Under the pieces are notes generated by a model. The model was not told the origin of the DNA. It worked only from the letters and a program-made list of their open reading frames with translations, and did no database searches. Below are positions 8,691-64,000 of a stretch of DNA of 64,000 bases, in pieces. Made by a program: the position numbers and the translations under genes. The stretch comes from Escherichia coli (GTDB lineage Bacteria > Pseudomonadota > Gammaproteobacteria > Enterobacterales > Enterobacteriaceae), in assembly GCF_003018235.1 (NCBI RefSeq), contig NZ_CP027437.1. One strand, given 5' to 3'. Every line of letters begins with the position of its first letter. The first letter of the stretch is position 1.

Positions 8691-8708
8691 TTTATAGATA
8701 ATATAAAT

Positions 8709-17735: not shown

Positions 17736-17940
17736 CCGCAGCTATCTTACCTTTCCTCAACAAAATAGCTGTTTATTTATACAGCAAATCCTGTTTCGGA
17801 CTTCTGTTGGCAAAACTGATCATTGCCCTTAAAACGACATCGCCCGCAGCCATTGCTGACCGCGGGCGAAAGTGTAAAACAGGTGCCTTACCACCCTGAC
17901 CTGACAACCGGATATGCGGGGATTGCTCCCCGCACAACGG

Positions 17941-18093
17941 CTACTTCTTCGGTTCGTAAGCGAGAACAGCCCTGAACTCAATATTACGTTCGTTCACCGT
18001 AAACTCACACAGCGAGTCTCCGACCAGAAGCGTAAATCCCAGCACCGTTAAACACAGCACTATGACTGCCACAAGGGCATATTTCGTCAGCAT
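17941..18093 (-). CDS. Hok-family toxin, copy 2 (K34N and K41R versus HokE)
   Basis: [50 protein letters not shown]; mok-like ORF 18005..18193 overlaps. Confidence 0.75.
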
Positions 18094-18193
18094 GTTTATA
18101 TTGCCTCCATGCGAAGAAGGGACTACCATCCAAATTGTTCAGGTTTGGGTAGGTAGCCCCAGGGTTGATAGAAATATCGTCCTGGGGCTTCAT
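18005..18193 (-). CDS. Mok-like overlapping frame of hok copy 2 (N-terminus differs from copy 1)
   Basis: 62-aa overlapping [16 protein letters not shown]... Confidence 0.4.
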
Positions 18194-18444
18194 CTTTCCA
18201 GACCTCAGAGTTAACCTGAAACCGGAAAGCTTCAGGCACCCGCTGTTATCTTACCCTTCCTCAGCAAAATAGCTGTTTATTTATACAGTGAATCCTGTTT
18301 CGGACTTCTGTTGGCAAAACTGATCATTGCCCTTAAAACGACATCGCCCGCAGCCATTGCTGACCGCGGGCGAAAGTGTAAAACAGGTGCCTTACCACCC
18401 TGACCTGACAACCGGATATGCGGGGATTACTCCCCGCACAACGG

Positions 18445-18597
18445 CTACTTCTTCGGTTCGTAAGCGAGAACAGCCTTAAACTCAATATTACGTTCCTTCA
18501 CCGTAAACTCACACAGCGAGTCTCCGACCAGAAGCGTAAATCCCAGTACCGTCAAACACAGCACTATGACTGCCACAAGGGCATATTTCGTCAGCAT
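18445..18597 (-). CDS. Hok-family toxin, copy 3 (identical to the HokE sequence I recall)
   Basis: [50 protein letters not shown]; here the hok frame stays open upstream to 18741 and begins with the Mok N-terminus (MPEAFRFQV...), i.e. the mok and hok frames are fused. Confidence 0.75.
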
Positions 18598-19028
18598 GTT
18601 TATATTGCCTCCATGCGAAGAAGGGACTACCATCCAAATTGTCTGGTTTGGAGTGGCAGCCCCAGGGTTGATAGAAATATCTCCTGGGGCTTCATCTTTC
18701 CAGACCTCAGAGTAAACCTGAAACCGGAAAGCTTCAGGCACCCGCCGTTATCTTACCCTTCCTCAGCAAAATAGCTGTTTATTTATACAGTGAGTCCTGT
18801 TTCGGACTTCTCACTCCTCATTTGATCAACTGAAGCTGAACCCGTTTTTTTCTGCATGCCTCAATCGTCAAAATTCTTCGCCACCAGCCAGCTCTGCCAT
18901 AACTTGTCACATTGCAAAAGTAGCCAAATTGCTTCAGTCACCATCACCAAAAAAAAGAAACATTCCAGAACTTCCGCATCTCGCCCAGCCGCTCCGACTT
19001 CTATACTGAATAGAAAACGCCAACATAA

Positions 19029-35355: not shown

Positions 35356-38314
35356 CCTTAATCGCGTCATCGGATGGTCTGGTTTACTGCTGACGTCTTT
35401 ATTGAGTACCAGCGCACTCGCAGACAATATCGGCACCAGCGCAGAAGAGCTGGGGCTGAGCGATTATCGCCATTTTGTTATTTATCCCCGTCTCGACAAG
35501 GCGCTGAAGGTACAGAAAAATAACGACGAAGCAACCGCCATCCGCGAATTTGAATATATACACCAGCAGGTGCCGGATAATATTCCGCTAACTTTATACC
35601 TTGCGGAAGCCTATCGCCATTTTGGTCATGATGACCGGGCGCGGCTGTTGCTTGAGGATCAACTGAAACGTCACCCAGGAGATGCCCGACTTGAGCGCAG
35701 TCTGGCGGCTATTCCAGTTGAAGTGAAAAGCGTTACGACTGTTGAAGAACTGCTTGCCCAGCAAAAAGCGTGCGATGCTGCGCCGACCCTGCGTTGTCGC
35801 AGTGAAGTTGGGCAGAATGCCCTGCGGCTGGCACAATTACCTGTCGCCAGAGCGCAACTGAACGATGCGACGTTTGCTGCATCGCCGGAAGGAAAAACGC
35901 TGCGAACCGATCTGCTGCAACGGGCAATCTACCTGAAGCAATGGTCCCAGGCAGATACGCTATACAATGAAGCACGCCAGCAGAACACATTAAGCGCGGC
36001 AGAACGCCGCCAGTGGTTTGATGTGCTTCTTGCCGGGCAGCTGGACGATCGGATCCTGGCGCTGCAATCACAGGGGATCTTCACCGATCCGCAGTCATAT
36101 ATTACTTACGCGACCGCGCTGGCTTATCGTGACGAAAAAGCACGCCTCCAGCGTTATCTCATTGAAAATACTCCGCTATTTACCACGGACGCACAAGAGA
36201 AAAGTTGGCTCTATCTGTTATCTAAATACAGCGGCAACCCCGTTCAGGCGTTGGCGAATTATACGGTACAGTTTGCCGACAACCGCCAGTATGTTGTTGG
36301 CGCGACGCTACCGGTGCTGTTAAAAGAAGGTCAGTACGACGCAGCGCAAAAACTGCTCGCCACCCTCCCCGCCAATGAAATGCTTGAGGAGCGTTATACC
36401 GTTAGCGTAGCGACCCATAACAAGGCTGAAGCTCTGCGTCTGGCACGATTGCTGTATCAGCAAGAACCGGCAAATCTTACCCGCCTGGATCAACTGACCT
36501 GGCAACTGATGCAGAACGAGCAGTCACGCGAAGCTGCCGATTTATTGCTGCAACGCTATCCTTTCCAGGGCGATGCGCGTGTCAGCCAGACTTTAATGGC
36601 GCGACTGGCGTCTCTGCTGGAAAGTCATCCTTACCTGGCAACTCCGGCGAAGGTGGCGATTTTATCGAAACCCTTACCGCTGGCGGAGCAACGTCAGTGG
36701 CAAAGTCAGTTGCCGGGTATTGCAGATAATTGCCCGGCAATAGTTCGCTTGCTGGGCGATATGTCGCCTTCCTACGATGCCGCCGCCTGGAACCGTCTGG
36801 CAAAGTGTTATCGGGACACGCTACCCGGTGTGGCGTTGTATGCATGGCTTCAGGCCGAACAACGACAACCGAACGCCTGGCAACATCGTGCGGTAGCCTA
36901 TCAGGCGTATCAGGTTGAGGACTACGCCACCGCACTGGCGGCCTGGCAGAAAATCAGTCTTCACGACATGAGCAATGAGGATCTGCTTGCTGCTGCCAAT
37001 ACCGCCCAGGCGGCAGGAAATGGTGCGGCTCGCGATCGCTGGCTTCAGCAGGCAGAACAACGTGGGCTGGGAAACAATGCCCTCTACTGGTGGCTGCATG
37101 CGCAACGTTACATTCCTGGTCAGCCGGAACTCGCACTGAACGATCTCACGCGCTCAATCAATATTGCGCCTTCTGCCAACGCTTACGTTGCGCGGGCGAC
37201 AATTTATCGCCAACGTCATAATGTCCCGGCGGCGGTGAGTGATTTGCGCGCCGCGCTGGAACTGGAACCGAATAATAGCAACACCCAGGCAGCGCTCGGT
37301 TACGCCTTGTGGGATAGCGGTGATATCGCACAGTCGCGGGAAATGCTCGAACAGGCGCATAAAGGGCTACCGGACGATCCGGCACTTATCCGACAACTGG
37401 CCTACGTGAACCAGCGTCTGGATAACATGCCTGCGACGCAGCACTACGCCCGGCTGGTGATTGATGACATTGATAATCAGGCGCTGATAACCCCACTGAC
37501 CCCAGAGCAAAATCAGCAACGCTTCAATTTCCGCCGTCTGCATGAGGAGGTCGGTCGCCGCTGGACGTTCAGTTTCGATTCTTCCATCGGCTTGCGTTCC
37601 GGCGCAATGAGTACCGCTAACAATAATGTCGGCGGCGCAGCGCCAGGGAAAAGCTATCGTAGCTACGGGCAACTGGAAGCCGAGTACCGCATCGGACGCA
37701 ATATGCTGCTGGAAGGCGACCTGCTCTCGGTTTACAGCCGTGTATTTGCCGATACCGGAGAAAACGGGGTGATGATGCCGGTGAAAAATCCGATGTCCGG
37801 CACCGGTCTGCGCTGGAAGCCGCTACGCGATCAGATCTTTTTCCTCGCCGTCGAACAGCAGTTGCCGCTGAACGGGCAAAATGGCGCATCCGATACCATG
37901 CTGCGCGCCAGCGCCTCATTCTTTAATGGCGGCAAATACAGCGACGAATGGCACCCGAACGGTTCAGGCTGGTTTGCCCAAAACCTGTACCTCGATGCGG
38001 CGCAATATATCCGCCAGGATATTCAGGCGTGGACGGCAGATTATCGCGTCAGCTGGCATCAGAAGGTAGCTAACGGACAGACTATTGAGCCTTACGCTCA
38101 CGTTCAGGACAACGGCTATCGTGATAAAGGCACTCAGGGCGCGCAGCTTGGCGGTGTCGGGGTCCGCTGGAATATCTGGACCGGCGAGACGCACTACGAC
38201 GCCTGGCCGCACAAAGTCAGTCTCGGCGTCGAGTATCAACATACCTTTAAGGCGATTAATCAACGTAACGGAGAGCGCAACAACGCGTTTCTCACCATTG
38301 GAGTGCACTGGTAA
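35342..38314 (+). CDS. nfrA: outer membrane protein NfrA (phage N4 receptor / exporter), TPR-rich
   Basis: Track ORF 35321..38314; start at MKENNLNRVIGW (ATG 35342), overlapping the nfrB stop; signal peptide. Confidence 0.85.
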   Translation: MKENNLNRVIGWSGLLLTSLLSTSALADNIGTSAEELGLSDYRHFVIYPRLDKALKVQKNNDEATAIREFEYIHQQVPDNIPLTLYLAEAYRHFGHDDRARLLLEDQLKRHPGDARLERSLAAIPVEVKSVTTVEELLAQQKACDAAPTLRCRSEVGQNALRLAQLPVARAQLNDATFAASPEGKTLRTDLLQRAIYLKQWSQADTLYNEARQQNTLSAAERRQWFDVLLAGQLDDRILALQSQGIFTDPQSYITYATALAYRDEKARLQRYLIENTPLFTTDAQEKSWLYLLSKYSGNPVQALANYTVQFADNRQYVVGATLPVLLKEGQYDAAQKLLATLPANEMLEERYTVSVATHNKAEALRLARLLYQQEPANLTRLDQLTWQLMQNEQSREAADLLLQRYPFQGDARVSQTLMARLASLLESHPYLATPAKVAILSKPLPLAEQRQWQSQLPGIADNCPAIVRLLGDMSPSYDAAAWNRLAKCYRDTLPGVALYAWLQAEQRQPNAWQHRAVAYQAYQVEDYATALAAWQKISLHDMSNEDLLAAANTAQAAGNGAARDRWLQQAEQRGLGNNALYWWLHAQRYIPGQPELALNDLTRSINIAPSANAYVARATIYRQRHNVPAAVSDLRAALELEPNNSNTQAALGYALWDSGDIAQSREMLEQAHKGLPDDPALIRQLAYVNQRLDNMPATQHYARLVIDDIDNQALITPLTPEQNQQRFNFRRLHEEVGRRWTFSFDSSIGLRSGAMSTANNNVGGAAPGKSYRSYGQLEAEYRIGRNMLLEGDLLSVYSRVFADTGENGVMMPVKNPMSGTGLRWKPLRDQIFFLAVEQQLPLNGQNGASDTMLRASASFFNGGKYSDEWHPNGSGWFAQNLYLDAAQYIRQDIQAWTADYRVSWHQKVANGQTIEPYAHVQDNGYRDKGTQGAQLGGVGVRWNIWTGETHYDAWPHKVSLGVEYQHTFKAINQRNGERNNAFLTIGVHW

Positions 38315-39205
38315 ATGCGTAAGTTCATTTTCGTATTGCTGACACTGCTTTTGGTCAGCCCTTTTTCCTTTGCGATGAAAGGTATTATCTGGCAACCACA
38401 AAACCGTGATAGTCAGGTTACCGATACCCAGTGGCAGGGGCTGATGAGTCAGTTACGTTTGCAAGGCTTCGATACCCTGGTTTTGCAATGGACCCGTTAC
38501 GGCGATGCATTCACCCAGCCAGAACAGCGCGCGTTATTGTTTAAGCGTGCCGCAGCTGCGCAACAGGCTGGCCTGAAGCTGATTGTCGGGCTGAATGCCG
38601 ATCCGGAATTTTTTATGCACCAGAAACAGTCATCCGCGGCGCTGGAAAGCTATCTTAATCGCCTGCTGGCTGCCGATCTCCAGCAAGCCAGATTATGGAG
38701 CGCCGCGCCTGGCGTAACGCCGGATGGCTGGTACATCAGCGCGGAAATTGACGACCTGAACTGGCGCAGCGAAGCCGCCCGTCAGCCTTTGCTAACATGG
38801 TTAAACAACGCGCAGCGGCTGATTAGCGATGTTTCAGCAAAACCGGTTTATATCAGTAGTTTTTTCGCCGGAAACATGTCGCCAGATGGCTATCGCCAAC
38901 TGCTGGAACAAGTTAAAGCAACCGGCGTTGATGTCTGGGTACAGGATGGCAGCGGCGTGGATAAACTTACCGCTGAACAGCGTGAACGTTATCTACAGGC
39001 CAGCGCCGATTGCCAAAGTTCCGCCCCTGCCAGCGGCATTGTTTATGAACTGTTTGTCGCCGGCAAAGGTAAAACCTTTACAGCGAAACCGAAACCGGAT
39101 GCAGAGATCGCCTCGCTGTTAGCGAAACGTTCCTCTTGCGGTAAAGACACGCTCTATTTCTCTCTGCGCTATTTGCCCGTTGCGCACGACATTCTCGAGT
39201 ATTAA
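38315..39205 (+). CDS. ybcH: uncharacterised exported protein YbcH
   Basis: 296-aa ORF whose ATG abuts the nfrA stop (taaATG); signal peptide. Confidence 0.8.
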   Translation: MRKFIFVLLTLLLVSPFSFAMKGIIWQPQNRDSQVTDTQWQGLMSQLRLQGFDTLVLQWTRYGDAFTQPEQRALLFKRAAAAQQAGLKLIVGLNADPEFFMHQKQSSAALESYLNRLLAADLQQARLWSAAPGVTPDGWYISAEIDDLNWRSEAARQPLLTWLNNAQRLISDVSAKPVYISSFFAGNMSPDGYRQLLEQVKATGVDVWVQDGSGVDKLTAEQRERYLQASADCQSSAPASGIVYELFVAGKGKTFTAKPKPDAEIASLLAKRSSCGKDTLYFSLRYLPVAHDILEY

Positions 39206-39739
39206 ATCTCCTCCAGGTAAGTCGGGTACGACCTGGCTTACCTCTTTCGCTCTCGTCAGAATTCCATCAAGATTAATTGCTAAAAAGCGTGCTAAAGAAA
39301 GAAGATCGTTATCGGCGAACGGGCCGATCACTCATGCAGGAAGCATAGATCCTTTGAGCGGAGTTTCTGATATCTGAGGAGTGCGAAATGCAATTGAGCA
39401 GCAGTGAACCTTGCGTGGTGATCCTGACCGAAAAAGAGGTAGAGGTAAGCGTTAATAACCATGCCACGTTTACCCTTCCGAAAAACTACCTGGCCGCCTT
39501 CGCGTGCAACAATAACGTCATTGAACTCTCAACGTTAAATCACGTATTAATCACCCACATCAACCGCAACATCATCAACGATTATCTGTTGTTTTTAAAT
39601 AAGAACTTAACCTGCGTAAAGCCCTGGTCGCGGCTGGCTACCCCGGTTATCGCTTGTCATAGCCGTACACCGGAAGTGTTCCGGCTAGCCGCCAACCACA
39701 GCAAGCAGCAACCCAGCAAACCCTGCGAAGCGGAGTTGA

Positions 39740-41810
<2,071 letters not shown>

Positions 41811-42153
41811 TCAAAGCGATATTCAGCATTACTGGAATCTGCGAATTGTCGCCAGTTCGCTATGTTTAAGCCCCAGCCTGCTCAAAAAGAAATTAAAAAA
41901 CGAAAATACCAGCTATAGCCAGATTGTCACAGAGTGTCGTATGCGTTACGCCGTACAGATATTATTGATGGATAACAAAAATATCACTCAGGTAGCGCAA
42001 TTATGTGGCTATAGCAGCACGTCGTACTTTATCTCTGTTTTTAAGGCGTTTTACGGCCTGACACCGTTGAATTATCTCGCCAAACAGCGACAAAAAGTGA
42101 TGTGGTGAAGGGCAAAGCGGAAACAGATAAGACGGGCATAAATGAAGAAGAAA

Positions 42154-42198
42154 TGGCGCGCCCTGCAGGATTCGAACCTGCGGCCCACGACTTAGAAG
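42154..42198 (-). other. 45-nt 3-prime fragment of tRNA-Arg (argU-like), probable prophage attachment-site remnant
   Basis: tggcgcgccctgcaggattcgaacctgcggcccacgacttagaag is the reverse complement of the 3-prime half of argU (acceptor stem, T-arm and anticodon stem) as I recall it; similarity stops abruptly at the anticodon. Confidence 0.6.
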
Positions 42199-42620
42199 TT
42201 CCTAGAACGACATTTTAAGTCAACAAATTACCGCGCCATCTCTGCGCTCACACGTCCCACTACCTCAAAACATGTAAAGCCTTGCAAGCCATTGTGAGGC
42301 CTTATGTGTCTCAGTTTTGTCCCTCTTTTTTGTACTAAAAAACATAGTAATTGAGGATAAACCTCATGCTATTTTCGCTTATATGCCTCTAAAGGCATGG
42401 CACTTAAATAGATAAAAGCACCACAAAAGCATAAAAAACCACACAGTAAAACCGCAATATGAAACAATAACAGATAATTAAACCAAAAACAGATAGCGCA
42501 TTGTGATAATCATTCAATACTAAACAAAATATAAACAGTGGAGCAATATGTAATTGACTCATTAAGTTAGATATAAAAAATACATATTCAATCATTAAAA
42601 CGATTGAATGGAGAACTTTT

Positions 42621-43574
42621 ATGCGGGCGAAACTTCTGGGAATAGTCCTGACAACCCCTATTGCGATCAGCTCTTTTGCTTCTACCGAGACTATATCGTT
42701 TACTCCTGACAACATAAATGCGGACATTAGTCTTGGAACTCTGAGCGGAAAAACAAAAGAGCGCGTTTATCTAGCTGAAGAAGGAGGCCGAAAAGTCAGT
42801 CAACTCGACTGGAAATTCAATAACGCTGCAATTATTAAAGGTGCAATTAATTGGGATTTGATGCCCCAGATATCTATTGGGGCTGCGGGCTGGACTACTC
42901 TCGGCAGCCGGGGTGGCAATATGGTCGATCAGGACTGGATGGATTCCAGTAACCCCGGAACCTGGACAGATGAAAGTAGGCACCCTGATACACAACTCAA
43001 TTATGCCAACGAATTTGATCTGAATATCAAAGGCTGGCTCCTCAACGAACCCAATTACCGCCTGGGACTCATGGCCGGATATCAGGAAAGCCGTTATAGC
43101 TTTACAGCCAGAGGTGGTTCCTATATCTACAGTTCTGAGGAGGGATTCAGAGATGATATCGGCTCCTTCCCGAATGGAGAAAGAGCAATCGGCTACAAAC
43201 AACGTTTTAAAATGCCCTACATTGGCTTGACTGGAAGTTATCGTTATGAAGATTTTGAACTCGGTGGCACATTTAAATACAGCGGCTGGGTGGAATCATC
43301 TGATAACGATGAACACTATGACCCGGGAAAAAGAATCACTTATCGCAGTAAGGTCAAAGACCAAAATTACTATTCTGTTGCAGTCAATGCAGGTTATTAC
43401 GTAACACCTAACGCAAAAGTTTATGTTGAAGGCGCATGGAATCGGGTTACGAATAAAAAAGGTAATACTTCACTTTATGATCACAATGATAACACTTCAG
43501 ACTACAGCAAAAATGGTGCAGGCATAGAAAACTATAACTTCATCACTACTGCTGGTCTTAAGTACACCTTTTAA
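42621..43574 (+). CDS. ompT: omptin outer membrane protease OmpT
   Basis: 317-aa ORF with a signal peptide and C-terminal F; recognised as OmpT. Confidence 0.9.
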   Translation: MRAKLLGIVLTTPIAISSFASTETISFTPDNINADISLGTLSGKTKERVYLAEEGGRKVSQLDWKFNNAAIIKGAINWDLMPQISIGAAGWTTLGSRGGNMVDQDWMDSSNPGTWTDESRHPDTQLNYANEFDLNIKGWLLNEPNYRLGLMAGYQESRYSFTARGGSYIYSSEEGFRDDIGSFPNGERAIGYKQRFKMPYIGLTGSYRYEDFELGGTFKYSGWVESSDNDEHYDPGKRITYRSKVKDQNYYSVAVNAGYYVTPNAKVYVEGAWNRVTNKKGNTSLYDHNDNTSDYSKNGAGIENYNFITTAGLKYTF

Positions 43575-43823
43575 GAACGCCAACTAAAATTTCCCCGAGG
43601 TGAAAATCGCCCCGGGGAATAACTAGCCATATCAATGTAACAATTAACCCTTAAAATAAACCCAGAAGGTTATTAACTGAATCACATAGAAAACCATCAA
43701 TTATAGTGTGTATAAAATGGGCGACAGCAACCCAATTACAAATTAATGGTTCCAGAATATCACATCAAAAAACACGCTATATAATATTATAATTAATATG
43801 TAGACAACTTGTAATAAACATTA

Positions 43824-44573
43824 TCAGTCAATTGTTTTGTTTATTCCATCTGTGACGCCGATTACTTTCTCAAAATAATGAGATGGCGTGACACCATAAT
43901 AATCTTTAAATGCACATATGAAATATGAAGTACTGTTATAGCCACATTTCTGGGCTACAACATTGATAGAATAAGAGTTTGAAGTTATGAGTTTTTTTGC
44001 ATACCTCATCCTAGTGTCTCTCAATACTTCAGTAAATGACGTTCCTTCATCCCTTAATCTTTTTTTTATTAAACTTTCACTCGTATAAATCAATTCCGCA
44101 ATATCTTTTAAATGCCATTGCCGCTCAATATTAAAACTGATTATTCCAGTAATTTTACAGGTAAATGTATTTATATTTGTTAGTATAAATGAATTTACAC
44201 TTTCGCGTTTTTTGAACATGGCAAGTAAGGATATACATAGTCGTTCTTTTAACCAAAGGGAGTGTGAGTCTGCTATTTTAATCCCTTCAAACAGAGAAAA
44301 AACAAGCGATAATGGAGGTTCCTCTTCAGCAATATAGTCATTCTTATCAAGAGTAAATTTGCCAGGCAGCTCATTATTCACGTCGATAAAAAAGGATAAA
44401 CATGTTTTCTTATCTATATCAACAATTCTTAGTTTAGAGGGGCATACTGGTAACTCCCTTCTAATTTTGTCGCTTACAATAAACAATGAATTTTTTTTGA
44501 ACGAGATAACTCTCCTGTTTATAATTAAATCAAATGATTGACAGATGAAAACTACGGAGCAAACATAATCCAT
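43824..44573 (-). CDS. appY: AraC-family transcriptional activator AppY
   Basis: 249-aa AT-rich ORF with a C-terminal AraC helix-turn-helix; recognised as AppY. Confidence 0.9.
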
Positions 44574-45237
44574 CTTGCACCTATCATAAAATTAAAACAA
44601 GTTGATAATAGTCAAATAACAACCAATTAAATACACAATCATAATCAGGATGATGTGCATTTATATTTTTATACACAAAATTATAGTTTGCAAATTTTAA
44701 TAAATTTCATTTAAGATTAAATTATTATATGTATATTATTTTTTATTCTAACGTATTTCAAAGTTACATTTTTCAACGCTTACTATGCTTTTTATTAACA
44801 TAAACTCACTACAACGCACCTGAAACCTCTTGCTATATATATGTCAACCGTTTGAATTTAAAATAAAAAGAGTATCATTTTTACTTGCATTTCTTATCAA
44901 GTCACATTCAACAACAGTAACAAAACATTATTAGAACCATTCAATTAACAAAAAACCAACATCCGGATTGCTTAACTTTTCTTTATTAAACGATATTGAA
45001 AATCAATTGATAAAATACATCTAAACAACTTTTTGGGGCGCAAAAGCATAACATCAAACCAACAAATAACACACCGAAAAAACTCACAATTAATAACCTA
45101 TGATATACATACTGTTTATTATGGTTGAATAAGCCACTCGATATCTGGCGTAACGGAAGTGTCTACACTGTTCAGCAGCACCCGATACTTCCATGCCTCT
45201 AGCAACAATCTTTCCTCCTCCGTTGTAATTTCCAGAT

Positions 45238-45378
45238 CTACAGCATGCTGAAGTGGCGCAATATGCTCACTCTCATTTTACCCTCAAAAATCCGGTCACA
45301 TTCTGCACAGTTCAACGCATTACGTTGTAGATCGGTGTTCTGGTCATTTGTTGATACACGTACATAGCCAATAAGCAT
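45238..45378 (-). pseudogene. remnant of a Gin/Pin/Cin-family serine DNA invertase (46 codons)
   Basis: Minus-strand [37 protein letters not shown]..., whose first 30 or so residues match the invertase N-terminus including the catalytic-Ser region; then it diverges and stops. Below the ORF-track size cutoff. Confidence 0.6.
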
Positions 45379-45440
45379 GTTAAATCCCCTTGGTAAAAGC
45401 AGGAATGATGCCATTTGCTTGTTATTTCTTCATTTTCATA

Positions 45441-45460
45441 AACGTTGGTTTGGGAGAAGG
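45441..45460. other. gix/cix-like recombination site (distal), inverted repeat of the site at 47279..47298
   Basis: aacgttggtttgggagaagg; its reverse complement matches gcttctcccaaaccaaggtt at 18 of 20 positions. Confidence 0.5.
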
Positions 45461-45926
45461 CTCTGCATTACCTGTTGGTGTGCCTGTTCCATGGCCTTCA
45501 GCCACACCGCCAACAGGCTGGCTGAAATGCAACGGTGCGGCATTTTCTGCTGAAGAATACCCGGAACTGGCAAAGGCTTATCCAACAAATAAATTACCTG
45601 ATTTACGCGGTGAGTTTATTCGTGGCTGGGATGACGGGCGCGGTATTGATGCAGGACGTGTTTTATTGAGTATTCAGGCCGGAATGCTGGAAAAGCACCG
45701 TCATCCTGTTGTCGCCAACGATGAGTATGACTCAAAAGAGGAATGGGAACTAGCGACAATCTTCAGAAGAGCATATAAGCAAGGCAGGGGGCTTGATGCT
45801 GCCGCTGCCGGAGGGAGTCTGATCCCATCACCGACACTTCATTCACGAGGGAGTATCGGTAATACTGGCGGGAGTGAAACCCGTCCACGAAATATTGCAT
45901 TTAACTATATCGTGAGGGCTGCATAA
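45441..45926 (+). CDS. alternative tail-fibre C-terminal segment in the currently unexpressed orientation
   Basis: C-terminal part of track ORF 45390..45926 with tail-fibre motifs (LPDLRGEFIRGWDDGRGID, NIAFNYIVRAA); there is no plausible start of its own, and the region upstream of the crossover site is not fibre-like. Confidence 0.55.
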   Translation, partial: NVGLGEGSALPVGVPVPWPSATPPTGWLKCNGAAFSAEEYPELAKAYPTNKLPDLRGEFIRGWDDGRGIDAGRVLLSIQAGMLEKHRHPVVANDEYDSKEEWELATIFRRAYKQGRGLDAAAAGGSLIPSPTLHSRGSIGNTGGSETRPRNIAFNYIVRAA

Positions 45927-46528
45927 TGGATAACGCCGTATTAAATAGCGAGCTTATTACCACGAAGGCGGGGAATATTACCGTCTATAACTATGATGGT
46001 GAGACGCGGGAATATATTTCTGCATCAACTGAATATCTTGCAGTGGGTGTCGGTATTCCAGCATATTCCTGTTTAGACGCTCCTGGTACATCTAAGGCTG
46101 GTTATACAATTTGCCGTTCTGTGGATTTAAAATCATGGGAATATGTGTCAGACCATCGCGGTGAAATCGTCTATAACACCGAAACGGGAGATGCCAAAGA
46201 AATCACAGCACTAGGCGACTATCCCGAAAATACAACCACTATCGCCCCGTTAACGCCATACGATAAATGGGATGGTGAAAAATGGGTGACAGATACTGAG
46301 GCACAACACGGTGCCGCAGTAGAAGCGGCAGAAGCACAGCGCCAGTCACTGATTGATGCAGCAATGGCTTCCATCAGTCTGATTCAACTGAAATTGCAGG
46401 CCGGACGTAAACCGACGCAGGCAGAAACAACCAGACTTAACGCTGTGCTGGATTACATTGACGCGGTGACGGCAACAGATACCAGCACCGCGCCGGATGT
46501 CATCTGGCCTGAACTGCCGGAGGCGTAG
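45926..46528 (+). CDS. tail fibre assembly chaperone (Tfa), partner of the alternative fibre segment
   Basis: 200-aa ORF whose start overlaps the preceding stop; conserved Tfa C-terminus. Confidence 0.7.
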   Translation: MDNAVLNSELITTKAGNITVYNYDGETREYISASTEYLAVGVGIPAYSCLDAPGTSKAGYTICRSVDLKSWEYVSDHRGEIVYNTETGDAKEITALGDYPENTTTIAPLTPYDKWDGEKWVTDTEAQHGAAVEAAEAQRQSLIDAAMASISLIQLKLQAGRKPTQAETTRLNAVLDYIDAVTATDTSTAPDVIWPELPEA

Positions 46529-46943
46529 GCCATTCAATATCTGGCGCACTGGAGGTATCAACCAGCTCCAGTGCATCCAGATAATCCAGCCACAAATTAT
46601 ATTGCGCCAGTTCCTCACCTTTCAGACGACCAATAGCGGCTTTACCGGGCCATTGTTTACTGTTCATGTATTCGTTGGCCTGGTTAATCAATAATTGCCT
46701 CTCTGATTCGGCCTGTTCAATAAGTTCCTCATGTGATGGTGGAGGTATTTCAGCCCATGTGGGAAAACCATTTTCCCCTGCAACTCGGATTTTCCCTTGT
46801 GGCGGTTCCGCCATATATTTTACAGAAATATCATCAGGAATATCTAATGCATTAGCAGGCCATGTTCCATTTACTTCATAAGTGTTTTTTAAATTAACAG
46901 CATAAAAAGCATTTTCCGAAGGGGAATAAATATATTGATTCAT
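46500..46943 (-). CDS. tail fibre assembly chaperone (Tfa), expressed orientation
   Basis: 147-aa ORF convergent with the other tfa and overlapping it by 29 bp; conserved C-terminus SSAPDIEWPTPP. Confidence 0.7.
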   Translation of the reverse strand: MNQYIYSPSENAFYAVNLKNTYEVNGTWPANALDIPDDISVKYMAEPPQGKIRVAGENGFPTWAEIPPPSHEELIEQAESERQLLINQANEYMNSKQWPGKAAIGRLKGEELAQYNLWLDYLDALELVDTSSAPDIEWPTPPAVQAR

Positions 46944-46944
46944 A

Positions 46945-47583
46945 TTATCTTCCTATTGCGATAATCATAGTTCCATACAAACCATTTCCGGTTGATACTT
47001 TTAAGGTTACTGATGTCCTTGTTGTCGTGTACCCCATAAGTTTAAAGGTCGGAGCAGCCGTTAATGTGCCATCTGACCATAAGGCACTAACAGCCAGTGC
47101 GCCTGAAGGAAATGCAATAGGGAAATTACCTGTAGTTCCGTTAGTGTCCGCCCCATAAACATTCATCGAAAACATTTGGACAATATGACCACTTGGTAAC
47201 TGAAACCAGTTTTTGCCAGATGGAAATGCAGACATATCTGGTATCTGATTTTCCCCTGTTCCCACATTCCGTTTTGCCGCTTCTCCCAAACCAAGGTTTT
47301 CGAGAGCCGTTTTCACCGTGCCGTCCGATTTGATATCGCCAAACGGATTTTTGCGGCTTAACAGCAGCGCACGAAGCGCGGTAAGCAGCTGGTCATGCCG
47401 CCCCTTCTCCAGGCTGGCACCGGATGCCTCCACCACGCTGCAGAGTTCTTCCTGCAACATGTCAAAGTAGTCATCATCCAGATCGGTGGCAGGTGTGCCG
47501 GTCTGGGGGTTACCACGGGTAAAACCGTTCTTACCCGCGCCGAACTTATCCTTCTGCGCGGTTTTCGTGTCTATACGATGCAT
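46945..47583 (-). CDS. tail fibre protein (constant N-terminus plus variable C-terminus)
   Basis: 212-aa ORF; the crossover site lies inside the gene near codon 95. Confidence 0.7.
47279..47298. other. gix/cix-like recombination site (proximal, inside the tail fibre gene)
   Basis: gcttctcccaaaccaaggtt, inverted relative to 45441..45460. Confidence 0.5.
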
Positions 47584-47586
47584 GGA

Positions 47587-58047: not shown

Positions 58048-58432
58048 TGCTGCCTCCGTGACTCTGCCTACATTCGCCCAGCTCCGTACACTCCAGCAGC
58101 AGAAAGCGCCGCGCCCCGTTCAGATCGCGCTGACGTTTCACCCGGTACACACTGTCACCGCAGACCACCTCATAATCAGCGGTGATCCCCCGGCGGTAAC
58201 GAATGGTGATGTAATGGGTGATGGCGTCCCCTGTCTGCGCGGTTTCCTGCCAGGTGGTGGCACTGGTCTGGATAACCTTCGCCCATGTCCGGAACGTAAC
58301 CGGGTATTGAGGCTCCACGCCAAAGTTATCCGCGGGCATATCCACCCGCAGGCGGATCAGGACGCGTTTATTCAGTTCACCGGGGTCCGGCAGAATGTAG
58401 GTTGCGCTGGTCTGCGCCTGACGAATTTTCAT
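58022..58432 (-). CDS. head closure / head-tail adaptor protein
   Basis: 136-aa ORF between connector and tail-completion genes. Confidence 0.5.
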   Translation of the reverse strand: MKIRQAQTSATYILPDPGELNKRVLIRLRVDMPADNFGVEPQYPVTFRTWAKVIQTSATTWQETAQTGDAITHYITIRYRRGITADYEVVCGDSVYRVKRQRDLNGARRFLLLECTELGECRQSHGGSNGDSLFSR

Positions 58433-58752
58433 TGCGGAAAGTACCTGTACGGGCCGACAAGCCAGCCAAAACTCTGCGGCATGTCGAGTTTCTCCACTTC
58501 CGTAACCGACGAGCGGTTTTCGTAAAAATGGCTGATAAGCATCAGCATCCCCAGACGAATATCATCCGGCAGGTGCAGCCCGTCCGGATCGCTCTCCGGA
58601 ATGGTTTCATCCGGTGCATAGAGCTTCCGGTTCAGATACGTTTCCGTCCGCTTTTGCGCCGCACAGGCCAGCAGTTGCAGATGGCGGTCATCAGCATCGA
58701 AATCCTCATCCAGCCGGAGTTGGGCTTTAATCTCTTCCATTGTCAGAAGCAT
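58429..58752 (-). CDS. head-tail connector protein (gp6-like)
   Basis: 107-aa ORF immediately downstream of the capsid module. Confidence 0.5.
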   Translation of the reverse strand: MLLTMEEIKAQLRLDEDFDADDRHLQLLACAAQKRTETYLNRKLYAPDETIPESDPDGLHLPDDIRLGMLMLISHFYENRSSVTEVEKLDMPQSFGWLVGPYRYFPQ

Positions 58753-58754
58753 AC

Positions 58755-58955
58755 TCAGCCCTCTTTACTGGTCGTGGCTTTTTTCTCTTTTGCCGCTTTA
58801 CTGCTTTTTGCACTGGTTCCGCGCTCTGCTAACCCGGCCTGAAGTGCAATCTCCTGCACCCGGGCAGGAAGCGCCCCATCGTCATACTCACCGGCCCGAA
58901 TGACCTCAACACGCATACCGTCCGGTGACCATTTCAGATCTTGTTTCAGGATCAT
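58755..58955 (-). CDS. hypothetical small phage protein
   Basis: 66-aa ORF with a Lys/Ala-rich tail, between capsid and connector; function unknown. Confidence 0.35.
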   Translation of the reverse strand: MILKQDLKWSPDGMRVEVIRAGEYDDGALPARVQEIALQAGLAERGTSAKSSKAAKEKKATTSKEG

Positions 58956-59004
58956 GATTCTTCACCCGTCAGAACAGGGGGCGCGGTTCCGCGCCCCTGA
59001 GTGA

Positions 59005-60210
59005 TTACGCCGCTGCAATCTTCAGCAGTTTGATGGCCTGCGAATCGACCAGCATCCCGCCGGTGCGCTTGGTGGTATAAAAACCGACAAACGGTTTATT
59101 GGTGTACGGGTCACGCAGAATGCGGGTGCCGATACGGTCAACGATGGTGTAACCCCGTTTGAAGTTACCAAATGCAATGGCTTTCGCATCAGCGGCGATA
59201 TCCGGCATCTGTTCGTTTTCAGCGATACCGTAACCCGCCAGAGAGGACGGCTGCCCCAGTTCCAGCCCCGGACGCCACAGATAGTTACCCTCGCTGTCTT
59301 TAAGCAGACGGATGGCAAACAGGCTGTTGTTGTTCATCATGAACTTCGCGCCAGTGCGGTGTGCCTTACGCAGCGTGTAAATCAGTTTGATAATGGCGTC
59401 TGCGGTCACCGCGGTCGCTTCGCCGGATACAATATGCTGAAGTTTGCCGAACGCCCGGACCTTGTCGGTTTCATCAGTGGATTCATACGCCAGGAACCCT
59501 TTCGGCTTCTTGGTGCCATCGCCTGAGGTAAAGGCAATTTCTTCCTGTTCGGCAAATTCGGTTGCCAGCTCGCTGTTGATCCAGGCCTCCACGTTGAAGA
59601 AGGCATCGTCCAGCATTTTCTGGGTAGCCTGCGGGTTGCCGTAGATTTCCCCCATGAGAGGTTCAATCAGCTCCAGTCTGGAGGTGGCAGTCTGGGATCG
59701 CGTATCCGTTTCCCCCACCCATCCGGAAGCCGTACCGCCCAGATTCACCAGTTTTTTGTAGTCGGAACCGCCAACGGTGATCACCGTGGCTTCCTGACGC
59801 ATCACCACTTCATCTTTCAGCAGGTTAAGAATGTTGCGATCCAGTTCTTCCGGCACGGCGTAGCCACCGTCTTCATCGGTACCCACCTGCAATGCCTTAC
59901 GCTCCAGATCGCGCAGACCGTCTTCACGGCCTTTACGTAGAAAGCCCACAAACGCCTCTTTATGCTCGGTGGCCAGTTTATTTTGCGCTCCACCTGCCGG
60001 ACGTTTCAGCTCAAGCAGCTCTTTTTCAAGGTCGCTTTTGAGATTTTCCAGCTCGCTGAGTTTCCCGTTCAGGGTTTCCACCTGCCCGGCAAGCTTGCCT
60101 TTTTCCTGCTCAATCGCATCCACGCGCTTGTCGTTCTTTGCTTTGAAGTCGTCAAACTTCTGCTGCAGCTCCTGCGCGACCTGTTCGACATCTTTAATAT
60201 CAACCGCCAT
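59005..60210 (-). CDS. major capsid protein, HK97 family
   Basis: 401-aa ORF with an N-terminal coiled-coil delta domain followed by an HK97-like fold region. Confidence 0.85.
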   Translation of the reverse strand: MAVDIKDVEQVAQELQQKFDDFKAKNDKRVDAIEQEKGKLAGQVETLNGKLSELENLKSDLEKELLELKRPAGGAQNKLATEHKEAFVGFLRKGREDGLRDLERKALQVGTDEDGGYAVPEELDRNILNLLKDEVVMRQEATVITVGGSDYKKLVNLGGTASGWVGETDTRSQTATSRLELIEPLMGEIYGNPQATQKMLDDAFFNVEAWINSELATEFAEQEEIAFTSGDGTKKPKGFLAYESTDETDKVRAFGKLQHIVSGEATAVTADAIIKLIYTLRKAHRTGAKFMMNNNSLFAIRLLKDSEGNYLWRPGLELGQPSSLAGYGIAENEQMPDIAADAKAIAFGNFKRGYTIVDRIGTRILRDPYTNKPFVGFYTTKRTGGMLVDSQAIKLLKIAAA

Positions 60211-60224
60211 CGTATTTCTCCTGA

Positions 60225-60911
60225 TTAGAAGTTCAGATTTTTCAGTGCATTCAGTGCAGAGCCCACATCCTCAGCGTCGCGCAGGGACAGTGCGCCATAG
60301 CCCCCGGCCATGAATGCTTTGGCCTGGGTACGGGAGAGTCCGACATCACGCAGGACTCTTTCGATTTTTTTCTGTTCGGGGATTTCCCCGCGGGCCAGCG
60401 CGTTCTTGACGTCGCTGATCCGCGCCTCGTCGTTAGACGGAAACGTCACCAGACTGACTTCCCAGAGGTCGATTTCTTTCAACAGAAAGGCTTCTTTGCT
60501 CCGGTCGTATTCCCAGTCTTTCAGGACGTACCCAATAGAAAGGCCGGTTAACGAACCGGCCTTCATGTGTGCATGTGCGCGTTTTGCGAGGGGATCATCA
60601 TCAATAAGCAACCGTCCCCTGACGTAAAGCCCGACATCGTCTTCCTTCATTTCGGTGTAAACACCGATGGGTTCATCCATGCGGTGCTGCCAGAGCAGCG
60701 CAGGTAACGCTTTTCTGTCACTCCACGCCCGCAGGGAAGCAGCAAATGCCCCGGACATCACCACATCATCGTGGCTGTCCTTTACACCAAAGACGGAGCC
60801 ATACCCTTCAAACTCACCGGAGTCACTGACAGATTTCAGACTCAGCGGTACATCAAGACGTTGTTTCGTCTGCATTGGCGTTATCCTTCTGCTTACCGGC
60901 TTTACTGCCAT
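60225..60911 (-). CDS. prohead maturation protease, HK97 family
   Basis: 228-aa ORF between portal and capsid; the true start may lie at an internal Met, since the track ORF overlaps the portal end by 59 nt. Confidence 0.75.
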   Translation of the reverse strand: MAVKPVSRRITPMQTKQRLDVPLSLKSVSDSGEFEGYGSVFGVKDSHDDVVMSGAFAASLRAWSDRKALPALLWQHRMDEPIGVYTEMKEDDVGLYVRGRLLIDDDPLAKRAHAHMKAGSLTGLSIGYVLKDWEYDRSKEAFLLKEIDLWEVSLVTFPSNDEARISDVKNALARGEIPEQKKIERVLRDVGLSRTQAKAFMAGGYGALSLRDAEDVGSALNALKNLNF

Positions 60912-62094
60912 CGGAGGGTTTCGTGGTCATGTTCATCGGTGTGAGATAGACATCCCCACCGGGACGCGGATTCATATCTTCCAGGTCGCGGCAGTCATTG
61001 GGAGAGTAAATTCCCCAGTTAATCCCGGTGGCGTAGGCTTCAAAACGGGACTTCATATCCCCGCGCAGTAACGCCCCGGCGTTAAATTTGGCGTAATAAA
61101 CGCCCTGCTTACTTTTTCGTACCAGTCCGGTGTTGATCCGCTGCTCAATGCGGGTCAGATACGGCACCAGTGAATAGTTGATAAATCCCAGCCCCAGCTC
61201 TTCGATATTGTTGAAGGTGGCGCGATCGGTGTTCTGCACCATGTGCAATGGCACACGGAACAGACGACAGATTTCTTCAAGCTGAAACTTGCGGGTTTCC
61301 AGGAACTGGCTGTCCTCGGCGTTCAGCGCCATCGACTTCCAGTCCAGCCCCATCTCAAGGATCATCGGGCGGTGAGCATTACCAAGCCCGGTGTGACGCT
61401 CCTCAAAATCTTTCTTCAGACGCTCATAAGCCTGATCCGACAGCGTCTGCTCTGTACGCAACACACCGGACGTCACCGCACCATTGCTGAACAGTCTGGC
61501 CCCGTGCTCTTCGGTCGCAGCTGCCAGCGATATTGCCTCGCGGGCATAGGCGATGGGATTCAGTCCCACCAGACCGTCCAGCGTCAGCGTGCGCACATGC
61601 CAGATATCTTCCTGGCTCAGTACATCCGTGGAGCCGTCCGGGAATGTGACCTGGTAAACCGGTTCCCAGCTACTGTTAAGCTTCGGTACCACACAACCTG
61701 GGTCGACGGGCAGCAGTTCAGCCACTTCGCCAAATGCTTTCACTTTGTAGGCGTAAAAGTTTCCCCGCAGGCACAGACAGGTGATCACCAGCTCCCAGAA
61801 CTCCTGCGGCGTCATATAGCCATTGGGATGCGTGGAGATCAGCTTATGCAGACGTTCGCCGGTGGCTCTCTGTTTCAGGCTGCCGTTCAGGTGATACAGG
61901 TTGCAGGGCAACATCCCGACCGACTCCGCCAGCACCCTGACGCAGGAAAAAACCGCCGTCAGTCGCATGGCCCGCTGGCTGCTGATCTGCTTTCCGGTAT
62001 AGGTGTCATATGACAGCCCGATAGCATCCGCCAGCTCTGCTGGCGTGGTCACCGGTGCGTCACTTTTTCGTTGAAATAATCCCGAAAAGAACAC
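60853..62094 (-). CDS. portal protein, HK97 family
   Basis: 413-aa ORF upstream of the protease/capsid genes. Confidence 0.85.
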   Translation of the reverse strand: MFFSGLFQRKSDAPVTTPAELADAIGLSYDTYTGKQISSQRAMRLTAVFSCVRVLAESVGMLPCNLYHLNGSLKQRATGERLHKLISTHPNGYMTPQEFWELVITCLCLRGNFYAYKVKAFGEVAELLPVDPGCVVPKLNSSWEPVYQVTFPDGSTDVLSQEDIWHVRTLTLDGLVGLNPIAYAREAISLAAATEEHGARLFSNGAVTSGVLRTEQTLSDQAYERLKKDFEERHTGLGNAHRPMILEMGLDWKSMALNAEDSQFLETRKFQLEEICRLFRVPLHMVQNTDRATFNNIEELGLGFINYSLVPYLTRIEQRINTGLVRKSKQGVYYAKFNAGALLRGDMKSRFEAYATGINWGIYSPNDCRDLEDMNPRPGGDVYLTPMNMTTKPSDGSKAGKQKDNANADETTS

Positions 62095-62276
62095 TATTTA
62101 CCTCCGCCGACAGACGGCTGTGTACGGTCGAGATATCGCGCCACCAGCCACGACCAGAACAGGCACAGCGCCCCGGCAACAACAAACCCCGCCGGGGGAT
62201 AAATCAGCCAGGCACCATACGCCAGCAAAAGCGCACCCAGCACGCCCACCAGAGGCGCGAGAATCAGCATGATCAT
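62094..62276 (-). CDS. small two-span membrane protein of unknown function
   Basis: 60-aa hydrophobic ORF wedged between terminase and portal, start/stop-coupled to the portal gene. Confidence 0.4.
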
Positions 62277-62287
62277 AATTACCTCAG

Positions 62288-63949
62288 TTAAAGCGAGCGG
62301 ATCCCGTAGGACTCAATGTGATCAGACAGCGTGTCTTCTTTCTCGTACAGCATGGCTCTGCCAACCGCCATAATCAGCGCAACTGCACCATCAATTTTGT
62401 TTTCCGCCTGCTCCTTGACGGGCTTCACCACATCATCGTTACCCGGAATGGTTTTGCCGACCACGTTGCCGATACACCAGGTCATGATGGGATTGCCGTC
62501 ATGATGAAAACGCCCCGATTCAATTGCCGCTTCCAGCTCTTTCAGCGGGTCGGACATGTTGGTGTAGTTCTGAATGATGGTGATGGGGTTCAGGTCTTCA
62601 TCCGCAAGGTCATGCGACAGCCCGGTCGCCCCGAAGGGGTCGATGGGTGACTCACTGACCGGGCTGATTTTGTTCGCCGCTTTGGCCTCCTCGAGGATGT
62701 AGCGATAATCCACCTCCGCACCATCGGTAACGGTCAGAACGCCCATTTCCACCCATTTCTGAAAGCGCTCGGCTGTCCGGCGATCTTCATTTTTCTCGAC
62801 GCTGTACACCGTGTCATACGGTACCCAGAAGCGCGGAGCCACACTGTAGTAATGCGTTTTACCGTCAATCTCGCGGGTATAAAGTCGCGCCATACTGTTC
62901 ATATCCAGCTTACGCGCCAGGTCAAAGGCCAGAATGCACGGCTGCCCCTCAAACTGCTCAAGGGTCAGTGATTTATCCTCGCAGCTCTGCCAGCTCACCA
63001 GGTTGAAATACGCCGAACGCGCCGACACCCAGATATTGAGGTGTTTTGTTTTAAAGACGTTTGCCAGACGGGCGTTATTTTTCGCACGCTGCTGCTGACT
63101 TAACAAAAATTCGCGATAAACCGACACGCCAATATTTGGATTGGCTTTTTCCAGCACCTGCGGGTCGGTCCAGTCGTCACCTTCATCAACGGTATAGATG
63201 ATCCCGAACAGTTCATCGTTGGGCACCGAGCCGTTGAGCATCTCGATGACTTCCCGCCGCTTGTCGTAGCACGGCCCCTCAATGTTGTACCCGGCAGTAG
63301 TAATGGCCCACATCAGTGGCTGACGTCGCGCCCCCATCCCGGTAAGCATCGTGGTGTAAAGCGCATCGGTGGCGTGCTCGTGATATTCATCCACCACCGC
63401 ACAGTGGGGTGATGATCCATCACCGGGGTTACCGATCAGCGGTTCAAAACGCGCACCATCCTCCGGACGGTTCATGTTTGAGGCGTTAACCTCAATCCCG
63501 AACGCTTCCGTCAGCATGGGTGTGCGTTTACACATCAGTCGCGCCGGGCGAAAGACTTCCCACGCCTGTTTCTCTGTCGTGGCACCGGAATACACTTCCG
63601 CGCCAAACTCGTTATCACAGGCAAAACAATACAGGGCGACACCGGCAGAGATTGCCGATTTGCCGTTCTTACGGGGGATTTCGGTATACACCTCACGGAA
63701 GCGGCGCAGCCGGGAGCCTTTATTGACCCAGCCAAACGCGCAGCAGATCACAAAGAGCTGCCACGGCTCCAGCGTGATGGGCATCCTCTTGAATGCCCAC
63801 TCACCCTTGGTGTGCGGCAACAGCTGAATAAATTTGGCGGCCCGTTCAGCCAGGTCCTTGTCGAAGCGGTAACGAAACGACTTACTTTTTTCCGCCATCA
63901 GGTCATCAAGATGGCGCTGGCAGGCCTGAATCACAAACTGGCAGGCCAC
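62288..63949 (-). CDS. terminase large subunit
   Basis: 553-aa ORF at the head of the structural module. Confidence 0.85.
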
Positions 63950-64000
63950 AATCTTTCCGCGAACGACATCCCGGGCATACTGATTGGCAGCATTTACGTT

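Follow-up and report, generated by a model that had tools for sequence, protein, structure and literature searches.

The AT-rich segment around ompT and appY (42200–45237 of the window, i.e., of the whole 64-kb stretch of Escherichia coli DNA analyzed) is very probably the cargo ("moron") end of a temperate phage at argU, whose non-coding tracts would act as platforms for H-NS and RNA polymerase, keeping appY nearly silent while ompT is expressed. The island is real but ordinary, as its K-12 locus is well studied and already known.

The GC content is 0.353 within the island and 0.534 in the rest of the window, where the lowest value for any 3038-bp stretch is 0.479. An earlier note had described the surroundings of ompT and appY as far more AT-rich than the flanks, a description to be dropped should the GC content not differ; it does differ, and the description holds. 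Tract 2 (44574–45120) falls to 0.250, ~7 sd under the same-size stretches elsewhere in the window (mean 0.534, sd 0.041, minimum 0.397). Tract 1 (42250–42620), at 0.321, lies only slightly under the lowest same-size outside stretch (0.35, at ~8383) and so does not stand out by itself. The appY coding sequence (0.32) is as AT-rich as the tracts, ompT only moderately so (0.437), and the convergent ompT/appY intergenic tract has a GC content of 0.325; the cargo stands at 0.32–0.44 against 0.5–0.6 in the adjoining phage genes. A/T runs number 35–38 per kb in the tracts and 8–9 per kb in the flanks, and the TpA frequency is 0.10–0.12 versus 0.04, while AA/TT phasing of the tracts is negligible. An AT content above the neighbourhood mean over hundreds of bp, characteristic of H-NS-silenced xenogeneic DNA, is therefore found in the island.

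The left border is an attR site. Its 47-nt core (42152–42198, minus strand) was located by alignment to K-12 argU/attL and to the attP of phage Kati, together with an exact 47-nt match, and corresponds to the 3' end of the tRNA-Arg(UCU) gene argU (positions 33–77 plus 2 nt), a tRNA fragment equivalent to K-12 pauD. The island starts one base past this core, at 42199, the position to which the annotated end of the cryptic prophage DLP12 in K-12 (586056) maps; integration at argU with a 47-nt att core is likewise a property of DLP12. The phage-side arm of attR is identical to Kati attP, and the opposite side diverges into envY. No complete tRNA was predicted by ARAGORN anywhere in the window, as expected if it contains just an att fragment; attL and int fall beyond the limits of the window. 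A search for Int arm-type repeats around Kati attP returned only short two-copy matches, e.g., TCA..CGTCCCA.TA.CT flanking the core on either side, which are too weak to call.

On the right, the island ends with the stop codon (45119) of a tail-fibre-assembly gene remnant. This tfaX-like remnant (45119–45271, minus strand) retains, by translation, the C-terminal 50 codons plus stop, is 88.7% identical to K-12 tfaX, and forms the right border of the cargo slot, its homology being likely used for cassette exchange. Next to it lies a truncated Pin-type serine invertase gene (45276–45378, minus strand) reduced to its first 35 codons (by BLASTP, 30/35 residues agree with the product of pinE from locus L006), and the annotation of E. 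coli A34 includes the same pair of pin'/tfa' remnants. Divergence from K-12 is concentrated from 45149 on, with the preceding difference at 45060, and K-12 homology stops at 45271, with the next 18.7 kb being SfIV-like. The "flanking core genes" of the earlier note were half right: the left flank consists of the attR site and envY, split by an IS21-family element, but the right flank is prophage DNA, in which an SfIV-like myovirus prophage comes after remnants of tail-fibre genes.

Within these borders, the full tract 1 (42199–42620) would open with ~150 bp of phage-side att arm and continue with the promoter region and leader of ompT; from 42250 to 42620 it is 99.5% identical to K-12 and 100% identical to phage Kati. 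A consensus scan placed a sigma-70-like −35/−10 pair (42554–42581, plus strand; TTGACT, 16-nt spacer, AAAAAT) ~32–34 nt upstream of the ATG, which by its consensus match is a candidate ompT promoter. The leader contains a perfect 8-bp hairpin (42586–42609, plus strand; ATTCAATC / GATTGAAT), read from the sequence and immediately followed by the Shine–Dalgarno GGAG (42610–42613). Phage Kati has the corresponding inverted repeat, I1, and the hairpin may serve, for example, to stabilize the 5' end of the mRNA. The ompT gene (42621–43574, plus strand) encodes an intact omptin outer-membrane protease of 317 aa (NF008222, 707 bits over 1–317 of 317) with two amino-acid differences from K-12 OmpT. 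An antisense ORF of 107 aa, rich in Phe, Ile, Leu, and Val, spans the ompT start (42404–42727, minus strand). It was rejected as a gene, being without an NCBIfam match and unannotated in the K-12 records, and its C-terminal frame is not conserved because a 1-bp indel at 42432 shifts it relative to K-12 and the phages; we regard it as an artefact of a T-rich strand.

The convergent ompT/appY intergenic tract (43575–43823) holds the boundary of two cargo modules at ~43577 and a terminator-like hairpin for appY at 43734–43718 (minus strand). The appY gene (43824–44573, minus strand) encodes an intact AraC/XylS-family transcriptional activator of 249 aa, as identified by AraC-family NCBIfam matches and RefSeq annotation of orthologs, and differs from K-12 AppY at 3 amino acids. 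Upstream of it, tract 2, the appY regulatory tract (44574–45118, ~545 bp), is 98.2% identical to its K-12 counterpart, the subject of the experiments in PMC2731890, PMC4469952, and PMC7054387. Four published K-12 primers match the window exactly (44428–44445, 44466–44483, 44805–44833, and 44870–44888), and the appY transcription starts published for K-12 correspond to 44598 (−25), 44654–44658 (−81 to −85), and 44686–44687 (−113/−114). In the consensus scan, promoter-like and terminator-like sites flank each cargo gene; their function is suggested by the scan or by the K-12 literature.

The gene order (tfaX–appY–ompT–pauD) and the att core of the attR-proximal DLP12 end of K-12 are the same as in the window, with 97.2–99.5% identity across tracts and genes. 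Beyond ~45149, unlike DLP12, the window continues into the pin'/tfa' remnants and the SfIV-like myovirus prophage, and the remaining DLP12 gene content (ybcY, tfaD, nohD, bor, rrrD, etc.) is not in the window, so that only the cargo module is of the DLP12 type. The same module is carried by isolated phages. With 98% identity, Kati and PhiR68_2 contain int, attP, ompT, appY, tfa', and the AT tract, whereas in ~11 other isolated lambdoid phages ompT occurs without appY and homology to the window ends at 43577; in ev243, only attP and ompT are shared and an alpha/beta hydrolase occupies the appY slot. Across these lambdoids (Kati, PhiR68_2, ev243, 2G7b, Turner, and the PhiR49/26/30 series), ompT adjoins attP, whether or not appY is present. 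They have in common with the window, at 98% identity, the layout int, attP (argU fragment), tract 1, ompT, appY with tract 2, and tfa', and in both the cargo occupies the position of the lambda b region. Unlike the window, with its SfIV-like myovirus genes and truncated invertase, these phages are siphoviruses with stf/tfa/lom/J tails and an intact invertase.

These observations agree with the features of a moron: the cargo lies between tail-fibre genes and the att site (order attR, ompT, appY, tfa', pin', tail-fibre genes), some related phages have it while others lack it or have something else in its place, and it has its own predicted promoter and terminator sites and a distinct GC composition. 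Tract 2 was detected in 834 of 5426 complete E. coli genomes (15%), always in 1–2 copies, and the cargo allele in the window differs by ~1.8% from all 834 E. coli copies. With the attR border, the DLP12 end, phage carriage, and this patchy occurrence, the horizontal acquisition of ompT and appY proposed in the earlier note is well founded, and the island has the horizontal origin expected of xenogeneic DNA.

The right flank belongs to a different phage lineage, its packaging, head, and tail genes being ~97% identical to those of the Shigella serotype-converting phages SfIV, SfII, and SfI. In the latter, the stretch from the tail-fibre genes to attP holds gtr genes for O-antigen modification, and integration takes place at thrW; in the window, the gtr slot holds ompT–appY and the att site is argU. 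The hybrid joint maps to 45061–45148, and this junction of the ompT–appY cargo to an SfIV-like prophage had no match among the 5426 complete E. coli genomes searched. We tentatively propose that the cargo block, from the argU att core to the tfa' remnant, is exchangeable and reached an unrelated SfIV-like myovirus prophage from lambda-like siphoviruses through homologous recombination, an account we hold at somewhat less than even odds.

As to the tracts themselves, the relevant K-12 elements are promoter islands (Shavkunov 2009; Panyukov & Ozoline 2013), defined by Shavkunov/Ozoline as regions of at least 300 bp with at least 8 PlatProm-predicted starts per 100-bp running window. All three K-12 intergenic tracts are promoter islands within genomic islands and were H-NS-bound in all ChIP-chip studies (PMC3661553), and in K-12 they are also occupied by RNA polymerase (PMC3661553, PMC2731890). 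The appY tract is the model case of this literature. Tract 1 is the ortholog of PI3, the ompT/appY spacer that of PI2, and tract 2 that of the intergenic part of PI1, with 97–99.5% identity and exact primer matches. PI1, PI2, and PI3 map to 44024–45039, 43553–43875, and approximately 42307–42656, respectively, using a 777-bp offset that we take to separate the K-12 genome versions. For this strain, H-NS occupancy, repression, and start sites would follow from the orthologous K-12 DNA, which is 98–99.5% identical.

Repression of appY by H-NS is attributed to Atlung 1996 in passages of PMC7054387 and PMC10057817, and a passage of PMC7054387 also credits Purtov 2014 with the inhibition. ArcA, H-NS, RpoS, and DpiAB are involved in appY regulation (PMC10057817), and its expression depends strongly on SspA (PMC11228462). 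Relative to the H-NS xenogeneic silencing data sets (Navarre, Oshima, Grainger, Kahramanoglou), the island shares a GC content 18 points below its surroundings and a phage origin, and its K-12 ortholog is H-NS-occupied in all of them. Unlike in classic H-NS silencing, K-12 ompT is expressed despite an occupied tract, and the island has no enriched high-affinity H-NS motif. Since the K-12 ompT tract is H-NS-bound yet transcriptionally active (PMC2731890), "silencing" is doubtful for ompT and fits appY better. The H-NS motif prediction suggested in the earlier note gave a negative answer: the consensus 10-mer TCGATAAATT occurred 5 times in the island at ≤2 mismatches, compared with 7.5 ± 2.6 in dinucleotide shuffles, and the nucleation motif (tCGATAAATT-like) with ≤1 mismatch had no match in the island. 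H-NS can, however, bind without a high-affinity motif. AT-richness is the only feature by which the tracts stand out.

A different account of the low appY expression, which we consider rather unlikely, attributes it mainly to an excess of overlapping promoter-like sites, dozens in number, where RNA polymerase would be trapped in abortive synthesis and interference without productive initiation, with H-NS as a bystander. The K-12 appY tract has 171 predicted start points (PMC2731890, PMC7054387), and RNA polymerase forms multiple open complexes on it although appY mRNA is barely detectable (PMC2731890). Directed evolution of this tract raised expression 8-fold in mutants that had lost excess promoters, with in vitro H-NS binding unchanged; in gel shifts with purified H-NS, binding to the appY fragment was virtually constant across mutant constructs (PMC7054387). 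A simple −35/−10 scan of 38000–50000 agrees in placing 11 of its 15 promoter-like sites within the 3-kb island, ~8-fold the flank density. This number, however, does not exceed that of dinucleotide shuffles of the island (13.1 ± 3.6), giving no sign of selection for promoters. Fuqua and Wagner put the share of such boxes that add to promoter activity at only ~13% and contest the conclusion (PMC11661796); a passage of the same paper cites raised promoter-island transcripts in delta-hns. The promoter-excess mechanism is thus disputed too (PMC11661796), and both it and H-NS stand as candidate silencers of appY.

It is improbable that the composition is passive, i.e., that the AT-richness stems from donor or phage accessory DNA or from AT-biased mutation and the tracts are decayed filler without a selected regulatory role, although appY itself is equally AT-rich and no motif, periodicity, ORF, or RNA structure rises above the expectation from composition. 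The tracts are conserved as well as the genes across the 834 genomes and several phages (97–99.5%), a weak argument as the copies are all very close, and in K-12 the tract includes mapped starts as well as a site for ArcA and is responsive to several regulators. Very improbable, in our estimate, is a hidden gene for a small protein or for an RNA (divergent or antisense), expressed from the spacer between ompT and appY or from tract 2 in the direction leading away from appY. Masulis et al. detected transcripts whose starts lie at −145, −214, and −225 with respect to appY and saw room for a novel gene (PMC4469952), these divergent plus-strand starts mapping to 44718, 44787, and 44798; plus-strand promoter-like sites occur at 44616–44739, and IS021, an sRNA candidate, was proposed to lie in the ompT/appY spacer (PMC2731890). 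Yet the non-coding tracts carry no coding or structured-RNA signal. The absence of ORFs of 60 aa or more asserted in the earlier note is true of tract 2, where a scan down to 20 aa found none longer than 34 aa, and fails for tract 1 owing to the 107-aa antisense frame; conserved coding sequence, which would have counted against that note, was found in neither tract. Rfam searches at E ≤ 1 over 38000–48000 gave no family match inside the tracts. The lone match in that interval, a sub-threshold hit to IS009 (76.7 bits vs. a gathering score of 117, at 45153–45350), was rejected since the region consists of tfa'/pin' coding remnants. The appY leader and the divergent strand of tract 2 fold no more stably than shuffles (z +0.86 and +0.17), no gene is annotated at this place in the curated K-12 record, and tiny ORFs in the phage Kati record are without functional annotation. 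A scan of viral contigs for diverged appY homologs returned only 98–99% identical copies, too close for a substitution-pattern or coding-periodicity test. A weaker possibility is that the divergent RNA seen with plasmid reporters (PMC4469952) is encoded by tract 2.

We therefore favour the reading of the segment as phage cargo with H-NS- and RNA polymerase-binding tracts. The cargo would consist of two separable AT-rich cassettes, one comprising the attP arm, the ompT promoter, and ompT, and the other appY with its ~545-bp upstream tract. Rather than genes, the non-coding tracts would be regulatory DNA, so extremely rich in AT, with numerous A/T runs and TpA steps, that they serve as platforms to which H-NS and RNA polymerase bind. 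In such a scheme, appY may be kept almost silent until host regulators relieve the repression (ArcA, RpoS, DpiA, and SspA-dependent induction being those reported for K-12), and ompT would stay expressed from its own promoter.

As a discovery, the island carries little weight, its K-12 ortholog being the textbook case of H-NS-bound promoter islands and of a regulator, AppY, that is carried by a prophage yet integrated into host physiology. What is gained is a clean structural definition, from the attR core to the tfa' stop codon with two separable cassettes, and the finding that live phages still bear the island beside attP. Its joining here to a different phage lineage points to a cassette-like shuffling of AT-rich cargo among temperate phages.

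Sliding-window composition and exact counts delimit a sharp AT-rich block around ompT and appY, as the earlier note had proposed: the island (42200–45237) has a GC content of 0.353 versus 0.534 in the remainder of the window, and every 3038-bp stretch outside it has a GC content of at least 0.479. The non-coding tract upstream of appY (tract 2, 44574–45120) falls to 0.250, compared with a minimum of 0.397 for same-size stretches outside the island (mean 0.534, sd 0.041). The tract preceding ompT (tract 1, 42250–42620), at 0.321, lies little under the lowest same-size ordinary stretch (0.35, at about 8383). The appY gene matches the tracts in AT-richness (GC 0.32); ompT is milder (0.437). Besides the island, GC below 0.38 occurs in the window only at 8378–8857, adjoining a large 1293-aa ORF (8709–12590), and in the tail-fibre variable region 46649–47139.

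The gene identities were borne out. A full-length omptin (NF008222, 707 bits) is encoded at 42621–43574 on the plus strand and an AraC-family protein at 43824–44573 on the minus strand; RefSeq names the corresponding E. coli genes ompT and appY. Compared with K-12, OmpT differs at 2 residues and AppY at 3, and nucleotide identity is 99.5% in tract 1, 98.5% in ompT, 97.2% in the convergent ompT/appY spacer (43575–43823), 99.2% in appY and 98.2% in tract 2. A perfect hairpin of 8 bp (ATTCAATC, 8-nt loop, GATTGAAT) occupies the predicted 5′ end of the ompT mRNA; it is followed directly by the Shine-Dalgarno sequence GGAG (42586–42613 including the latter) and may act as a 5′ stabiliser. Among the early ompT codons, CUUCUGGG (42633–42640) shows complementarity, one G-U pair included, to what we take to be the 5′ end of OmrA/OmrB.

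Directly left of the island, 42152–42198 matches the 3′ end of the tRNA-Arg(UCU) gene argU exactly over 47 nt; ARAGORN detected no intact tRNA. The ompT-side sequence of this fragment is the same as the attP of phage Kati and the far side diverges into the envY flank, which identifies the fragment, by sequence comparison, as the attR site; the annotated end of the K-12 cryptic prophage DLP12 maps to 42199. On the right, the island is bordered by the stop codon (45119–45121) of tfa′, a tail-fibre-assembly gene remnant comprising the C-terminal 50 codons; beyond it lie codons 1–35 of a Pin-type invertase gene, pin′ (45276–45378, minus strand). The island’s coordinates in the earlier note thus agree nearly exactly with real structural borders. 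A sub-threshold Rfam match to IS009 (45153–45350, minus strand; 76.7 bits against a gathering score of 117) is probably not an RNA gene, because its aligned part consists of tail-fibre-assembly and invertase coding remnants.

A phage-genome search recovered the block in its entirety (98% identity) in Kati and PhiR68_2, both isolated temperate phages; together with the attR site at the border, this upholds the proposed horizontal origin. Both phages have the order int, attP (argU fragment), ompT, appY, AT tract, tfa′, methyltransferase and, further on, invertase, tfa, stf, lom and J, so that the cargo occupies the place of the lambda b region. Another eleven or so phages carry the attP–ompT part alone, with homology ending 3 bases past the ompT stop (window 43577), and phage ev243 encodes an alpha/beta hydrolase in appY’s place; these arrangements indicate that the island is composed of two separable morons. 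Of 5426 complete E. coli genomes, 834 contain tract 2, almost always as a single copy, with 97–98.5% identity. These 834 cargo copies and those of K-12 and the phages are nearly identical among themselves, and the window’s allele (42200–45120) is about 1.8% divergent from practically every one of them; identity to E. coli is 99.5% in the neighbouring core genes nfrB and nfrA. The cassette in the window seems to derive from a separate lineage.

The flanks had been described as core genes, a description that needs correction on the right side only. Clustered substitutions relative to K-12 begin at 45149 (the last one before is at 45060); homology is lost beyond about 45149 and ends altogether at 45271. 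After this junction come the pin′/tfa′ remnant pair, also present in E. coli A34 at a different locus, an invertible-looking tail-fibre segment and about 18 kb of phage DNA. The latter (45926–64000), neither DLP12 nor core genes, covers the packaging, head and tail genes of a myovirus prophage and has 97% identity to Shigella phages SfIV, SfII and SfI and E. coli phage vB_EcoM-720R4. With the cargo/SfIV-like junction absent from the 5426 complete E. coli genomes, the cassette seems to have become attached to another phage lineage via the common tfa remnant. In the tail-fibre segment, a fibre C-terminus and tfa (45390–46528, plus strand) face a second tfa and fibre (46500–47583, minus strand). 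The segment (within 45276–47583) lacks an invertase of its own, the adjoining Pin-type gene being cut to 35 codons, and is presumably frozen.

On the left, a 1952-bp IS21-family element (39777–41728; IstA 39862–40884, IstB 40881–41663) with a 7-bp target duplication splits envY into a 135-aa N-terminal ORF (39388–39795) and a 114-aa C-terminal ORF (41764–42108), which indicates that envY is inactivated in the source strain. Farther away, three tandem hok/sok antitoxin RNA copies (17582–17737, 18085–18241 and 18589–18743, all minus strand) and one ES036 sRNA match (16568–16609, plus strand) score above the Rfam gathering thresholds.

A hidden gene within the tracts is a minor rival to regulatory DNA. 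The claim that ORFs of at least 60 aa are lacking is true of tract 2 (longest 34 aa) and formally wrong for tract 1, where a 107-aa minus-strand ORF (42404–42727) runs antisense to the ompT start. This ORF is a Phe/Ile/Leu/Val-rich reading of a T-rich strand, had no match in an NCBIfam search, and has a C-terminal frame unlike that in K-12 or the phages; we judged it non-coding on the last two grounds. No Rfam family matched within the tracts, and their RNA folds were no more stable than those of shuffled sequences. A search for diverged appY loci, which comparative tests for hidden coding sequence would need, returned near-identical copies only.

A/T runs number 35–38 per kb in the tracts versus 8–9 in the flanks, and TpA steps reach 0.10–0.12 versus 0.04. 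The island holds 11 of the 15 promoter-like sites within 38000–50000, with no excess over its dinucleotide shuffles (13.1 ± 3.6). The suggested H-NS motif check was likewise negative, matches to the 10-mer being no more frequent than in such shuffles (5 versus 7.5 ± 2.6), and AA/TT phasing in the tracts was negligible. Composition is the only sequence property marking the tracts, which is consistent with general H-NS binding to AT-rich DNA and leaves selected motifs unsupported. Passive composition is a minor rival; promoter interference we regard as a contributing one.

The K-12 promoter islands and start sites were projected onto window coordinates with an assumed 777-bp offset between K-12 genome versions, consistent with the gene names in the paper, and the four primers of the K-12 appY-island studies match the window exactly. 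The three non-coding stretches are, in K-12, three of 78 promoter islands (listed as tfaX/appY, appY/ompT and ompT/envY), all within predicted genomic islands and H-NS-bound in every ChIP-chip study (PMC3661553). The appY island is the model system of this literature: RNA polymerase forms several open complexes there, yet appY mRNA is hardly detectable, and active transcription is seen at the ompT island (PMC2731890). Transcripts in the divergent direction begin at positions −145, −214 and −225 with respect to appY (PMC4469952). PMC7054387 reports strong H-NS inhibition of appY and includes gel-shift assays of the appY fragment with the purified protein. Expression of appY depends on ArcA, H-NS, RpoS and DpiAB (PMC10057817) and on SspA (PMC11228462). 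Whether H-NS or promoter excess is the causal silencer is debated (PMC7054387, PMC11661796).

Together, our analysis ranks H-NS-centred silencing of appY first and supports the earlier interpretation, with caveats for ompT and the supposedly core right flank. The feature itself was already known. The block is prophage cargo, and its AT-rich tracts most probably represent regulatory DNA that recruits both H-NS and RNA polymerase; this would hold appY almost silent pending the action of host regulators and leave ompT expressed.
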